64,000 bases of DNA. It comes from Deltaproteobacteria bacterium. Lineage in GTDB: Bacteria; Myxococcota_A; JAADFL01. Each line of letters begins with the position of its first letter. Position 1 is the first letter of the stretch. Made by a program: the position numbers and the translations under genes. Positions 120-1,580 of the stretch are shown here, piece by piece. The notes beneath the pieces were generated by a model. That model worked only from the letters and a program-made list of their open reading frames with translations. It did no database searches and had not been told where the DNA came from. The stretch spans positions 23,301 to 87,300 of the forward strand of contig JAADFL010000205.1 of assembly GCA_013152945.1 (NCBI GenBank). The letters run 5' to 3'.

Positions 120-1580
120 ATGATGAAGAGAGCACGACTCGTTTGGATCCCAAGCATATCCTTGATTTCACTGGCACTTATCATCATGGCGTTCTCCAAC
201 TGTAGTTCGTCTTCATCTAAATCCGGAGATACTGATATCGACACGGATACTGACACGGACACCGGCACGGATATAGATATAGATACAGATACAGATACGG
301 ATACGGATACGGATACGGATACGGATATAGACACCGATACCGACAGCGATACTGATACTGATACGGATGCGGATACCGACATAGACACGGATGCTGACAC
401 TGACACTGACACGGATACTGATACAGATACTGGCACGAGTTCGAATCCTGCGTGCAAACCTCCGAGCTTTACTCCGACCCCGCGGCCGGCAGATGAGGAC
501 TTCACTTCCCTTGATGATCCGGAACAATGGGTGGTGGAGAAGGAACTGGGATTGGTAGAGGATATAGCAACATTGGTATACGGTCATGGCCTCGATGCAT
601 GGTTCGCCAACAAGCAGATATGTGATCCCATTGGAATGTCCGCTTGTACGCCGGACTCCAAATTTTGCGCCCAATGGGATGGAAAACAGGTTATTTGCGG
701 AGGACAGTCGAACCCTTATTATTCATTCAATACATCCATTACGGCACCTGATTTACCCGAGACCTGTGTAAGGGATCACCAGGAATTCAAGCTGACATCC
801 CTGGACTTGAACGCATCGTACCTTGCCTGGGAGTCCAAGTACTATTTAACTTTTACAGGAACGAATGAAGGCTCCACTTTAATCAGCAACGGCAGGACAT
901 GGAAAGCTGTTTGGAACCAGGTTTCTCTGAAAATGACCTCTTACATCGAGAAGTACCTTGTCGACCTATCGATGACCGTTAAAAACGGAGACACAACGAG
1001 AAATTTGCAACTCATAGCCATCATGGAAGTACAAGACCCCAACTCCGGAACATCCACAATCGAAGGATATGTAAAAGAAGGGGACAAAGAGGTGGCCTCA
1101 ATAGCCGGTTCTTTCATGCATGGAGATTTCACCTGGTACGTGGACAAGCCGAGTCAGGGCAAACCCGGAGATCTCTGCTCGACCAACAGGCCCTGCGATC
1201 CCGGCATCTACTGTGTTTACTATGGCACCTTTTCCGGCGTTTGCAGAACGACCTGCACCAATCCGGGCTCCACGACCGCTCCGTGTGTCGATGGAGAAAC
1301 CTGCAAGACAGTAAAGTCGCTTGAAGGCGACAACGGCAAGGATGTGACCGTTTGTATTCCAGAGGGCACGGTTGAAAAAGGTGGTGACTGCAACACGGGA
1401 ACCAAGCTATGTAAAGATGGATTGTTCTGTGCGCCAAAGTGCATGGATCAAAACAACGATGAATGTAAGAAGATGGTTTGCCAGACAAAGTGCCCGAATG
1501 GCAGCGAGTGTACGCCACCGGAAAAATGCGTGGACCTCACCATAGGTGACGAAAAGGAAAAGGTCTGTATCCCGCAGTAG
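120..1580 (+). CDS. Secreted Thr-Asp (TD)-repeat protein with Cys-rich C-terminal modules
   Basis: ORF of 486 aa with a GGAGGT RBS 5 nt upstream of ATG. N-terminal hydrophobic signal (LISLALIIMAFSNC). About 70 aa of DTDTDT dipeptide repeats, then a globular region, then C-terminal Cys-rich repeats (C..C..C spacing). No C-terminal transmembrane segment. Confidence 0.7.
   Translation: MMKRARLVWIPSISLISLALIIMAFSNCSSSSSKSGDTDIDTDTDTDTGTDIDIDTDTDTDTDTDTDTDIDTDTDSDTDTDTDADTDIDTDADTDTDTDTDTDTGTSSNPACKPPSFTPTPRPADEDFTSLDDPEQWVVEKELGLVEDIATLVYGHGLDAWFANKQICDPIGMSACTPDSKFCAQWDGKQVICGGQSNPYYSFNTSITAPDLPETCVRDHQEFKLTSLDLNASYLAWESKYYLTFTGTNEGSTLISNGRTWKAVWNQVSLKMTSYIEKYLVDLSMTVKNGDTTRNLQLIAIMEVQDPNSGTSTIEGYVKEGDKEVASIAGSFMHGDFTWYVDKPSQGKPGDLCSTNRPCDPGIYCVYYGTFSGVCRTTCTNPGSTTAPCVDGETCKTVKSLEGDNGKDVTVCIPEGTVEKGGDCNTGTKLCKDGLFCAPKCMDQNNDECKKMVCQTKCPNGSECTPPEKCVDLTIGDEKEKVCIPQ
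226..436 (+). repeat. Imperfect (GAYACN)n hexanucleotide tandem tract encoding (Thr-Asp)n
   Basis: Direct reading shows gatacggatacggatacggatacg and similar units. The tract is in frame and its period is 6 nt. Confidence 0.85.

Follow-up and report, generated by a model that had tools for sequence, protein, structure and literature searches.

The whole stretch of DNA analysed here, referred to as the window, is 64 kb in length and contains exactly four tracts of six or more x-Asp dipeptides, (xD)≥6, as identified by a six-frame regular-expression scan. All four lie within the open reading frames in which the sequence-only reading had placed Thr-Asp (TD) linkers, labeled here P1 to P4. The linkers had been described as 70 to 110 aa long and as encoded by imperfect hexanucleotide tandem arrays. 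Both descriptions are borne out, with measured lengths of 70–108 aa and the same four arrays recovered by TRF with a period of 6, 74–80% matches, and super-periods of 12, 18, 24, and 54 nt. At the composition of the window, even a (TD)6 run is expected by chance about 3e-10 times per window. The exact tract lengths in the assembly could be slightly off. The coordinates of the tracts, their host genes, and the associated features are given in Table 1.

Table 1. TD tracts, host genes, and associated features of the window.
Feature	Position	Strand	Description	Basis
P1 gene	120..1580	+	486-aa exported protein	ORF and translation, GGAGG RBS
TD tract 1	225..434	+	In P1; 70 aa, G36-G105; (xD)n, x = T26 I5 A2 S1	
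P1 C-terminal Cys-rich region	1152..1577	+	Repeated C-x5/6-C-x5-C-x(3-12)-C mini-modules	Direct reading
g1708 and PMT_2 (GT-C glycosyltransferase) gene pair	1708..4277	+		PMT_2 50.3 bits
P2 gene	15816..19088	-	1090-aa C25 (gingipain-family) cysteine peptidase	Pfam and translation
P2 tail	15819..15956	-	Cys motif SGCECN, hydrophobic helix, and RKRNVF; tripartite, MYXO-CTERM-like	Direct reading
TD tract 2	15957..16238	-	In P2; 94 aa, 18-nt super-period	
P3 gene	31275..33191	+	638-aa exported protein	Translation
TD tract 3	31488..31811	+	In P3; 108 aa	
P4 gene	61009..63597	+	862-aa exported protein	Pfam and translation
TD tract 4	63034..63339	+	In P4; 102 aa	
P4 Cys mini-module and tail	63340..63594	+	SGCGCS, hydrophobic helix, and GHKHFNG	Direct reading

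The coding frame of the four tracts is set by long intact ORFs. Opposite-strand ORFs at the tract (a 153-aa (VS)n frame and an IR-rich frame) were rejected as genes and are regarded as shadows. A tRNA scan and an Rfam scan of the window gave no match.

P1 has a GGAGG sequence 5 nt upstream of its ATG at position 120. It is composed (left to right) of a signal peptide ending at Cys28, the TD tract, a region of approximately 240 aa that falls in no family, and a Cys-rich tail of approximately 140 aa. The tract begins eight residues past Cys28 and is located ahead of the entire mature protein. P1 matches no Pfam family, its Cys-rich region has no significant Pfam match, and a PDB sequence search with the P1 domain returned nothing meaningful. 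The Cys-rich region is 83% identical to a metagenome fragment (L011), and ENA sample ERZ27262694 contains a P1 fragment at 83% identity. A word-indexed homology search with the non-repeat part of P1 found no relatives, and an exhaustive phmmer search of 1.84e9 representatives found one 121-aa fragment and one marginal match (E 1.6e-4). The fragment is 80% identical to P1 and lies on a 592-bp ENA contig without the N-terminus. The exact P1 and PMT_2 protein sequences have no record in public assemblies. Modeling of the mature domain of P1 with AlphaFold2 from a single sequence gave an unusable result, with a mean pLDDT of 40.6.

P2 contains a propeptide, a MopE-like Cys motif, the TD tract, and a Cys-containing C-terminal tail. 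Its C25 membership is based on a match of 187.9 bits to PF01364 (Peptidase_C25, gathering score 23), and the propeptide matches PF08126 (Propeptide_C25) at 32.9 bits against 22. A search with the non-repeat part returned 188 C25 homologues at E ≤ 1e-10, the best of which are 39–43% identical. P3 has a signal peptide, a 9-Cys module of approximately 50 aa, the TD tract, and a 459-aa domain for which no Pfam family and no PDB relative were found. P4 has, in order, a beta-lactamase-like domain (27.8 bits), two Big_9 Ig domains (63.4 bits), an unassigned domain, the TD tract, a Cys module, and a Cys-containing tail. The Cys mini-module of P4 has knottin-like Pfam matches, all of which are sub-threshold.

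The four hosts had been called unrelated, and they are. Tract-masked all-versus-all BLASTP gave E > 0.1 throughout, and Pfam content differs (none in P1 and P3, Peptidase_C25 in P2, and Beta-lactamase with Big_9 in P4). No close orthologues of the four loci were found by exact look-up or by homology searches with P1 and P2. An xD tract is present in 0 of 120 C25 homologues of P2 and is absent from approximately 150 kb of related Myxococcota loci, which suggests that the tracts are insertions and not a family trait.

A single shared architecture of signal peptide, passenger, stalk, and anchor or Cys-knot had been proposed for all four proteins. It describes P2 and P4 and does not describe P1 and P3, in which the tract is near the N-terminus. 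The proposal of a stalk or tether holds more widely, as the tract precedes a Cys-containing, MYXO-CTERM-like tail in P2 and P4 and follows the signal peptide in P1 and P3.

MYXO-CTERM signals are defined by a tripartite layout (PMC11980579). Read directly, the P2 and P4 tails both show this layout of a Cys signature, a TM helix, and a basic cluster. The P4 tail reads SGCGCS...FLLMLFGISIFIGHKHFNG, and its basic cluster is weak. Scores for the TIGR03901 model fall below its cutoff of 20 bits, with 13.3 bits for the P4 tail and no match for the P2 tail. The one match of the P2 tail is to the end of the Mrt_dep_phytase (myxosortase-dependent phytase) model, at 11.5 bits. A Pfam match of the Rce1-like/CPBP kind that a myxosortase should give was absent from the 28 other window ORFs scanned.

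Lipoboxes were identified at the signal-peptide end using PROSITE PS51257, {DERK}(6)-[LIVMFWSTAG](2)-[LIVMFYSTAGCQ]-[AGS]-C. Neither P1 (..MAFSNC) nor P3 (..LFANAC) conforms to this pattern. As judged by this strict rule, the N-terminal Cys of the two proteins may carry no lipid, in which case the tract would be no tether but a free extension at the N-terminus. The pattern is present in the protein at 4397-5038 and in an RHS protein (5484-11075), and a tail similar to those of P2 and P4 is present in an S8 peptidase (20157-22712; TIGR03901 14.4 bits). None of the three proteins has a TD tract, and sorting therefore does not depend on the spacer.

Across the four tracts, Asp occupies 181 of the 187 D-positions and Glu occupies none (0/187). 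The 187 x-positions are mostly T (152), followed by I (11), A (8), and S (3). Codon third positions vary freely, and Thr-codon usage differs between the four tracts (chi2 78.8, p 3e-13). In TD tract 3, for example, ACT accounts for 32 of 47 Thr codons versus 130 of 934 in the window background. The longest perfect hexamer-periodic span per tract is 17–34 nt, or approximately 3–6 units; the longest perfect 6-nt periodic run of TD tract 1 is 28 nt (34-nt span).

Duplicated blocks of 18–66 nt are visible within the tracts. TD tract 4 contains a 54-nt (18-aa) unit in three tandem copies, the unit ending in [A/V]DTDTD, and a 41-nt exact internal repeat at an offset of 54. Exact repeats are 28–41 nt inside tracts versus at most 22 nt between tracts. 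An origin of the four tracts as mutual copies, or by gene conversion, was rejected on account of these short shared sequences and the differing codon signatures. Scrambled synonymous sites, Thr-codon biases particular to each tract, and block duplications point to growth by local in-frame duplication and not to classic hypermutable microsatellites. The arrays had been called slippage-prone, which is only partly borne out, given the shortness of the perfect runs and the synonymously scrambled DNA.

Length change that stays in frame, as had been predicted, is plausible given these block duplications and the near-identical proteins of other organisms. In public clusters at 90% identity, indels of 2, 4, 6, 8, or 12 aa occur inside the xD tract while the flanks are nearly identical. 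Such indels were observed in a Clostridia TlpA lipoprotein cluster and in three further clusters (P0154, P0143, and P0126).

TD tracts are common in metagenomes. A degenerate DNA scan identified at least 120 TD stretches, and a search with the P4 tail matched 397 proteins at E ≤ 1e-3. Among the matches listed with (xD)≥10, a PROSITE-type lipobox is located upstream in 66 of 105, the median distance between its Cys and the tract being 19 aa. Among the stretches listed, two (L032 and L055) have the TD tract directly ahead of an LPFTG sortase signal, and two others (L133 and L036) have a lipobox, a Cys module, and a TD tract in the same layout as P3. Some public TD tracts precede PilZ domains. 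PilZ domains are cytoplasmic in known cases, and the motif is therefore not confined to envelope proteins. The wide occurrence of TD runs in metagenomes argues for a new flavor of a familiar device and not for a new system.

The TD stalks had been said to correspond to no named family, a statement that stands. The only matches were to SD-repeat MSCRAMM models (NCBIfam SdrC, SdrD, ClfA, and ClfB), and these are compositional and far sub-threshold, with 28–77 bits against cutoffs of 999–2500 and alignment over the repeat regions of the models only. Membership in the SDR/MSCRAMM family was rejected for this reason. No account of Thr-Asp or TD repeats was found in the literature searched, and the Thr version of an x-Asp stalk appears to be undescribed in the searchable literature.

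We regard it as fairly probable that the tracts are disordered, acidic spacers beside a (possibly) anchored end, inserted in a lineage-specific manner and grown independently by in-frame duplication. Each tract would be a low-complexity insertion with a charge of about -0.5 per residue. It would separate a functional domain from the protein terminus that is, or may be, attached to the cell envelope. The spacer would sit just upstream of the MYXO-CTERM-like sorting tail in P2 and P4, and just past the signal peptide and Cys in P1 and P3. Judged by composition, the segments are predicted to be disordered and extended; charge repulsion together with beta-branched Thr would keep them extended and soluble. 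As a stalk or tether, the tract could hold peptidase, Ig/hydrolase, or other domains off the membrane surface. That the proteins are anchored and exposed at the surface, and that tract length is polymorphic at these four loci, is inferred.

Under the spacer reading, the tracts would arise and lengthen separately from locus to locus as blocks of 6–66 nt are duplicated in tandem and in frame, either by slippage during replication or by unequal exchange involving short exact repeats. Asp would be retained by selection at every second position, with mostly Thr between, while synonymous sites drift.

It is unlikely that the tracts act chiefly as contingency loci, their main role being to let stalk length change rapidly and heritably from strain to strain, with antigenic or functional diversification as the result. 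A 6-nt period does leave every slippage product in frame, the exact internal repeats and the marked 54-nt duplications record past expansions, and the public cluster members differ by 2–12 aa indels in the xD tract. However, DNA periodicity is only 74–80%, and the perfect hexamer-periodic stretches are short, whereas the perfect runs of classic phase-variable SSRs are longer. Scrambling at synonymous sites would be expected under damped slippage, not under promoted slippage. In addition, metagenome assemblies, the source of the public indels, may collapse repeats, and many contigs end inside TD tracts. A phase-variable simple-sequence contingency locus in the strict sense was rejected, as there is no long perfect repeat and a period of 6 cannot switch expression. 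All length changes stay in frame, and on/off switching is thereby precluded.

A second alternative is a mucin-like stalk, O-glycosylated on Thr, for example by the PMT_2 enzyme, which would shield the spacer from proteases. The tracts are approximately 41% Thr, and C25 and S8 peptidases are among the organism's own secreted proteins. PMT_2 is co-directional with P1 and lies two genes and 1 kb downstream of it; no terminator-like site between the two was detected in a promoter/terminator scan that was otherwise uninformative. In relatives, a GT2 gene, read by eye only as a polyprenyl-phosphate glycosyltransferase, precedes PMT_2, suggesting a glycosylation system on the periplasmic face. GlcNAcylation of staphylococcal SD repeats by SdgA and SdgB is reportedly protective. 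The SD repeats are nearly fully GlcNAcylated, which shields them from cathepsin G (PMC3794999), and glycosylation is presumed for Thr/Ser-rich segments ahead of other sorting signals (10.1101/2023.06.07.544157).

Genomic context argues against this alternative, and we consider a glycosylated stalk improbable. The g1708-PMT_2 pair is kept in six Myxococcota/Deltaproteobacteria MAG loci, the flanks of which (up to 10 kb) contain neither a P1 homologue nor an xD tract. Conversely, PMT_2 and g1708 homologues are absent from approximately 550 kb of loci, nearly all of which were fetched for their TD tracts. A functional tie between P1 and PMT_2 was rejected on these grounds. Within the tracts, Asp is the strictest position, while 15% of the Thr positions carry I, A, V, L, or M instead, and many public tracts carry largely A or S in place of Thr. 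The PMT_2 family is moreover broad, with modifiers of lipids and glycans among its members. The sequence-only reading had drawn a parallel with O-glycosylated repeats, and this part of it gains nothing beyond the adjacency of PMT_2, which belongs to a gene pair that occurs in relatives without TD proteins. The pair is the sole candidate link to glycosylation, and the gene context does not support counting it as part of the TD feature. A Glycos_transf_1 gene (25118-27181) belongs to a generic family and is located approximately 4 kb from P3 and 6 kb from P2.

Against a plain spacer, the complete lack of Glu may point to a role more specific than that of bulk negative charge. A further possibility is that (xD)n, with its strictly conserved Asp, is itself a functional signal or substrate and no passive spacer. 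It would be either a dedicated acceptor array for envelope O-glycosylation of Thr (a "mucin" stalk built by a GT-C enzyme such as the adjacent PMT_2) or an acidic determinant of surface exposure for Cys-anchored proteins, LES-like but far longer, with convergent recruitment in Myxococcota, Clostridia, and Gram-positives that bear LPXTG. We judge this decidedly unlikely.

Cation binding is another, and a very unlikely one. The alternating Asp array would form a surface for Ca2+/Mg2+ or mineral binding, cross-bridging LPS or exopolysaccharide or sequestering metal, and an extended strand would place all Asp side chains on one face. The absence of Glu at D-positions occurs although the rest of the proteome contains 5.7% Glu versus 7.1% Asp, and the strict two-residue periodicity exceeds the order needed by a generic acidic linker. 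P2 also contains a MopE-like, putatively metal-binding Cys/Asp motif, and PF11617 is found in its top homologues. Amplification of a 6-nt unit, however, trivially gives the same periodicity, and the absence of Glu could reflect homogenization through duplicated GAY-containing units. No calcium-binding repeat family was matched, with no TSP type 3 (TSP_3) or RTX Pfam profile at E ≤ 0.01 for whole proteins or at E ≤ 1 for segments.

That the tracts are a collapsed or chimeric assembly repeat, or are read in the wrong frame, is extremely unlikely, for although short-read assemblies often break at TD tracts and many public contigs start or end within one, each of the four is enclosed by a long intact ORF with a signal peptide and recognizable domains flanking the tract, codon signatures and internal markers are particular to each tract, and other frames yield only stop-bounded shadow ORFs.

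If the spacer reading is true, TD tracts would flag proteins anchored in the envelope or displayed at the surface, both in uncultured Myxococcota and in further phyla, and would offer protein engineering a natural, highly soluble, extended, length-tunable linker. The presence of x-Asp stalks beside three unrelated anchors (lipobox Cys, MYXO-CTERM-like Cys tails, and LPXTG) would be a clean case of low-complexity convergence. Because TD tracts break short-read assemblies and draw spurious "MSCRAMM adhesin" similarity, annotators should treat such matches as compositional.

Several known systems resemble the TD tracts in part. In the Bacteroidota LES (K-(D/E)2 or SDDDD), acidic residues after the +1 Cys are linked to surface exposure (PMC5080379). 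That signal is 4–5 residues long, position-critical at +2 to +6, and found in another phylum, whereas here the acidic residues start at +9 or later and continue for approximately 70–100 residues. A sorting-signal role of the TD tract is unsupported.

PEP-CTERM and CGP-CTERM signals come after Thr/Ser-rich segments of low complexity (10.1101/2023.06.07.544157). P2 and P4 resemble the PEP/PGF/CGP/MYXO-CTERM proteins in having low-complexity sequence rich in hydroxy amino acids upstream of a tripartite signal with an invariant Cys, and the closest genomic relatives of the organism are Myxococcota. The CTERM-type segments differ in being irregularly Thr/Ser-rich and not strict dipeptide repeats with 50% Asp, and the MYXO-CTERM HMM scores obtained here are under the curated cutoff.

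In E. coli, a disordered linker at the N-terminus is present in approximately half of the outer-membrane lipoproteins and is functionally important (10.1101/2021.01.05.425367). The tracts of P1 and P3 are similarly placed, within 8–50 residues of the signal-peptide Cys. Known tethers are approximately 10–30 aa long and plain in composition, unlike the 70–108 aa of strict xD repeat described here, and P1 and P3 lack the PROSITE lipobox.

Another likeness is to the stalks of the staphylococcal Clf-Sdr (SDR) MSCRAMM adhesins. These are also x-Asp dipeptide repeats of approximately 100 residues or more with imperfect hexanucleotide-based coding and, as in P2 and P4, the repeat has the functional domains on one side and a C-terminal sorting signal on the other. 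Experiments show SD repeats, like other staphylococcal stalks, to be disordered and highly extended (PMC9881980). In the window tracts, Thr replaces Ser, which holds only 3 of the 187 x-positions. The window proteins have no LPXTG, A-domain, or B-repeats, and P1 and P3 have no tail of the sorting type. The host is apparently Gram-negative and Myxococcota-like, and two of the four tracts are N-terminal. The TD tracts are best read as analogous to Ser-Asp stalks and lipoprotein tethers, with the likeness implying no membership in a family.

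Four period-6 arrays were located in the window by Tandem Repeats Finder, with a periodicity of 74–80% and super-periods of 12, 18, 24, and 54 nucleotides. A six-frame regular-expression scan for (xD)n, n of at least 6 and x mostly Thr, returned exactly four tracts, every one in the frame of a long ORF. Their lengths agree with the sequence-only reading, which had claimed four TD linkers of about 70–110 residues. By chance, even a (TD)6 would be expected about 3e-10 times per window, given the composition outside the tracts (Thr 5.2%, Asp 7.1%). The reading frame of the tracts is not in doubt, because the host ORFs (P1–P4) are intact, each with an N-terminal hydrophobic signal sequence, and P1 has a GGAGG 5 nucleotides upstream of its ATG. 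Opposite-strand (VS)n and IR-rich ORFs were rejected as shadows of this frame. All four tracts start with [S/G]-G-D-x-D and end with T-G, T-S-T-G, or T-Q-T-G. Gly also lies immediately ahead of many public TD tracts. The common start boundary may be the context in which the repeat was seeded, or else a favoured hinge.

Features of the window, with TD tracts listed below their host proteins
Feature	Position	Strand	Description
P1	120–1580	+	486 aa; signal peptide ending ...MAFSNC28, SSSSSKS, TD tract, ~240 aa of unknown fold, ~140-aa tail
TD tract 1	225–434	+	70 residues, G36–G105; array 228–432; start boundary 225–239
P1 Cys modules	1152–1577		in the ~140-aa tail
g1708	1708		301 aa, one N-terminal TM; g1708-PMT_2 pair 1708–4277 (+)
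PMT_2	2610–4277	+	PMT_2-family GT-C glycosyltransferase gene
RHS/YD-shell protein	5484–11075	+	1863 aa; teneurin-like NHL and CarboxypepD_reg domains; canonical lipobox
SelA	14333–15766	-	selenocysteine synthase, 437 bits
P2	15816–19088	-	1090 aa; C25 (gingipain-family) cysteine peptidase, 187.9 bits; propeptide, 32.9 bits
TD tract 2	15957–16238	-	94 residues; array 15934–16223; start boundary 16224–16238
S8 subtilase	20157–22712	+	851 aa; GGCGC, hydrophobic helix, RKIRERRER; TIGR03901 14.4 bits
P3	31275–33191	+	638 aa; signal peptide (...LFANAC), ~50-aa nine-Cys module, TD tract, 459-aa domain
P3 Cys module	31335–31487		
TD tract 3	31488–31811	+	108 residues; array 31506–31809; start boundary 31488–31502
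DUF58/VWA cluster	45002–52113	+	Bat/aerotolerance-like genes
Tandem repeat	45347–45431		27 nt x 3.1, in first gene of the DUF58/VWA cluster
PilZ-Hsp70 fusion	57302–60304	-	1000 aa; N-terminal PilZ domain, full Hsp70/DnaK-like ATPase
P4	61009–63597	+	862 aa; beta-lactamase-like domain, two Big_9 Ig domains, unassigned domain, TD tract
TD tract 4	63034–63339	+	102 residues; array 63037–63341; start boundary 63034–63048
P4 Cys module	63340–63470		six-Cys mini-module, then SGCGCS, helix, GHKHFNG

Codon positions 1 and 2 are nearly fixed in the tracts, and third positions are scrambled, every Thr codon and each of the two Asp codons being used. Asp occupies 181 of 187 D-positions and Glu none. Thr occupies 152 of 187 x-positions, the remainder being I, A, S, V, L, M, or G. 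Thr-codon preference is markedly unequal among the tracts (chi2 78.8, df 9, p 3e-13): tract 3 favours ACT, tract 2 ACA and ACG, and tract 4 ACC, and each departs from the window background. Exact repeats of 28–41 nucleotides occur within tracts at offsets of 6, 18, 54, and 66 nucleotides, and exact sharing between any pair of tracts is at most 22 nucleotides. In tract 4, an 18-residue unit (12 residues followed by [A/V]DTDTD), marked by Met and Ala/Val substitutions, is present as three tandem copies. The longest perfect 6-nucleotide periodic spans of tracts 1 to 4 are 34, 23, 23, and 17 nucleotides, a long way short of a perfect microsatellite. Taken together, the codon scrambling, the codon bias of each tract, and the within-tract repeats show that each tract grew at its own locus, independently of the others, through in-frame tandem duplication of blocks of one to eleven hexamers, that protein-level selection maintains the xD alternation, Asp above all, and that the tracts as they stand have only a moderate tendency to slip. 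An origin by slippage is well supported; hypermutability of the tracts is unsupported.

The mature part of P1 has one good relative among 1.84e9 representatives, a 121-aa C-terminal fragment with 80% identity on a 592-bp contig. The best homologues of P2 are 39–43% identical. Length polymorphism was examined in proteins of other organisms, by aligning public xD proteins that cluster at 90% identity. Between nearly identical flanks, cluster members differ by in-frame indels inside the xD tract: 2, 6, and 12 aa in a Clostridia TlpA-family lipoprotein cluster, 4 and 2 aa in cluster P0154, 8 aa in P0143, and 6–8 aa in P0126. The result is positive and points to tract length polymorphism as a general phenomenon, in public clusters rather than at these four loci. 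The clusters derive from metagenome assemblies, and some of the indels could be assembly collapse, because contigs often terminate in TD tracts. Many public contigs at loci found by a degenerate DNA scan likewise start or stop inside a tract. Since TD tracts break short-read assemblies, the lengths read from MAGs, and perhaps those of this window too, are best taken as approximate.

The four hosts are unrelated outside their tracts, as previously proposed, since an all-versus-all BLASTP with tracts masked gave no match below E = 0.1. P1 has no relative in Pfam or PDB, and no family was detected for the 459-aa domain of P3. Downstream of its peptidase, P2 contains a MopE-like Cys/Asp motif and the TD tract, then a 10-residue segment, a hydrophobic helix, and an RKRNVF tail. 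The SelA gene lies directly downstream of P2; scans of the 64 kb for tRNAs, tRNA-Sec included, and for Rfam families gave no match. The proposed order of signal peptide, passenger, stalk, and anchor holds for P2 and P4 and fails for P1 and P3, whose tracts sit near the N-terminus. Small disulfide-rich modules with C-x5/6-C-x5-C-x(3-12)-C spacing accompany three of the four tracts (P1, P3, and P4), and similar modules lie beside TD tracts at four metagenome loci (L133, L036, L053, and L064). Those of P1, P3, and P4 gave only sub-threshold DUF7107, EB-module, or knottin-like matches, the P3 module resembling DUF7107/EB-module.

P2, P4, and the S8 subtilase end in a Gly-Cys signature, a TM segment, and a basic tail of the MYXO-CTERM type. 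This signal is reported to be universal in Myxococcota and to be processed by the myxosortase MrtX after presumed Cys lipidation (PMC11980579). The three tails are termed only MYXO-CTERM-like, because TIGR03901 scores here are 13–14 bits versus a 20-bit cutoff and the P2 tail has no match. Together with the Myxococcota relatives of the PMT_2 protein, they suggest, and do not prove, a divergent Myxococcota-like bacterium as the source. The subtilase lacks a TD tract despite carrying the third such tail of the window, and is a useful internal control for an optional role of the spacer. Lipoboxed proteins elsewhere in the window lack a tract as well, so the spacer is not obligatory. Anchoring of P1 and P3 is uncertain because both fail the strict lipobox rule.

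The tract is an insertion rather than a family trait, because no xD tract is present in the 120 listed C25 homologues or in ~150 kb of related loci, mostly Myxococcota. TD tracts are common in public data. With the P4 tract and tail as query, 397 of just 8000 scored candidates matched at E ≤ 1e-3. Among the 105 listed matches with (xD) of at least 10, 66 have an upstream PROSITE-type lipobox (median 19 residues from Cys to tract), within 40 residues of the tract in 52. A variety of domains follows the tracts, among them DUF1566, DsbA/TlpA-like, and amidase domains. The few matches with organism names come mostly from MAGs of "Deltaproteobacteria", Polyangia, and Polyangiales, where one assembly has several; Phycisphaerales, Patescibacteria, Cyanobacteria, and Clostridia are further named sources. 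The degenerate scan found at least 120 metagenome stretches of 14 consecutive GAYACN units, about one third of those listed being non-coding or eukaryote-like microsatellites and many of the rest lipoproteins. Locus L133 encodes a tandem pair of paralogues built like P3 (lipobox, Cys module, and a 124- or 146-aa TD tract). TD spacers extend beyond Myxococcota and beyond envelope proteins, since they occur directly ahead of an LPFTG sortase signal (L032, L055), as 200–640-aa tracts in a number of ENA assemblies and in two human-gut-labelled contigs (L042, L044, L072, L078; L049, L054), and before PilZ domains at some listed loci, where the tract can join a large N-terminal region to the PilZ domain at the C-terminus.

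Glycosylation of the repeat is an attractive idea because the PMT_2 gene closely follows P1. This gene is overlapped by 4 nucleotides by g1708, which has no Pfam family. The closest genomic relatives of the PMT_2 protein (36–39% identity) are in Myxococcota, Myxococcales, or "Deltaproteobacteria" MAGs; neither it nor P1 has an identical record in public assemblies. The pair is kept in six Myxococcota/Deltaproteobacteria MAG loci (L001–L006) with neither a P1 homologue nor an xD tract nearby, and no PMT_2 homologue is present in ~550 kb of loci, almost all of them retrieved for their TD tracts. The association of P1 and PMT_2 is thus mere adjacency, and Thr glycosylation of the tracts is possible but unsupported. 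Upstream of the pair in the MAG loci are GT2 (polyprenyl-phosphate glycosyltransferase-like) and asparagine-synthetase-like genes, assigned by eye; with these neighbours the pair would be an uncharacterised envelope glycosylation module.

Three further regions are worth recording. The RHS region has a GC content of 0.60–0.63 versus ~0.51 for the window, which suggests a polymorphic-toxin locus whose composition is foreign or distinct. The PilZ-Hsp70 fusion is an unusual c-di-GMP-receptor-chaperone architecture. The repeat inside the DUF58/VWA cluster is nearly perfect.

What the tracts share is a long Thr-rich segment of low complexity, acidic throughout, adjoining an end that is, or may be, fixed in the envelope. 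Such a segment would act as a disordered, charge-extended stalk or tether that sets the functional domain off from the membrane. A fully stretched chain measures ~0.35 nm per residue. The 70–108 residues would reach up to ~25–38 nm at full stretch and realistically much less. The public tracts ahead of PilZ domains run counter to an envelope spacer. The complete lack of Glu at D-positions suggests a constraint beyond net charge. Unless this Asp-specific constraint or a dedicated modification proves real, the tracts are mechanistically unremarkable.

No paper describing Thr-Asp repeat stalks was found in the literature searched; the tracts are a real feature, abundant in sequence databases and essentially undescribed. 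Membership of the staphylococcal SD-repeat (MSCRAMM) family was rejected on every testable criterion, namely residue identity, model scores, and sorting signal. By analogy with three known systems, we infer a disordered, extended spacer. Staphylococcal stalks, including SD repeats, are experimentally disordered and highly extended (PMC9881980), N-terminal linkers of lipoproteins are disordered (10.1101/2021.01.05.425367), and other C-terminal sorting signals are preceded by Thr/Ser-rich regions (10.1101/2023.06.07.544157). The lipoprotein tethers and the Thr/Ser-rich regions resemble the TD tracts, yet the TD tracts are far longer and more regular, and the SD-repeat stalk is their closest functional analogue.
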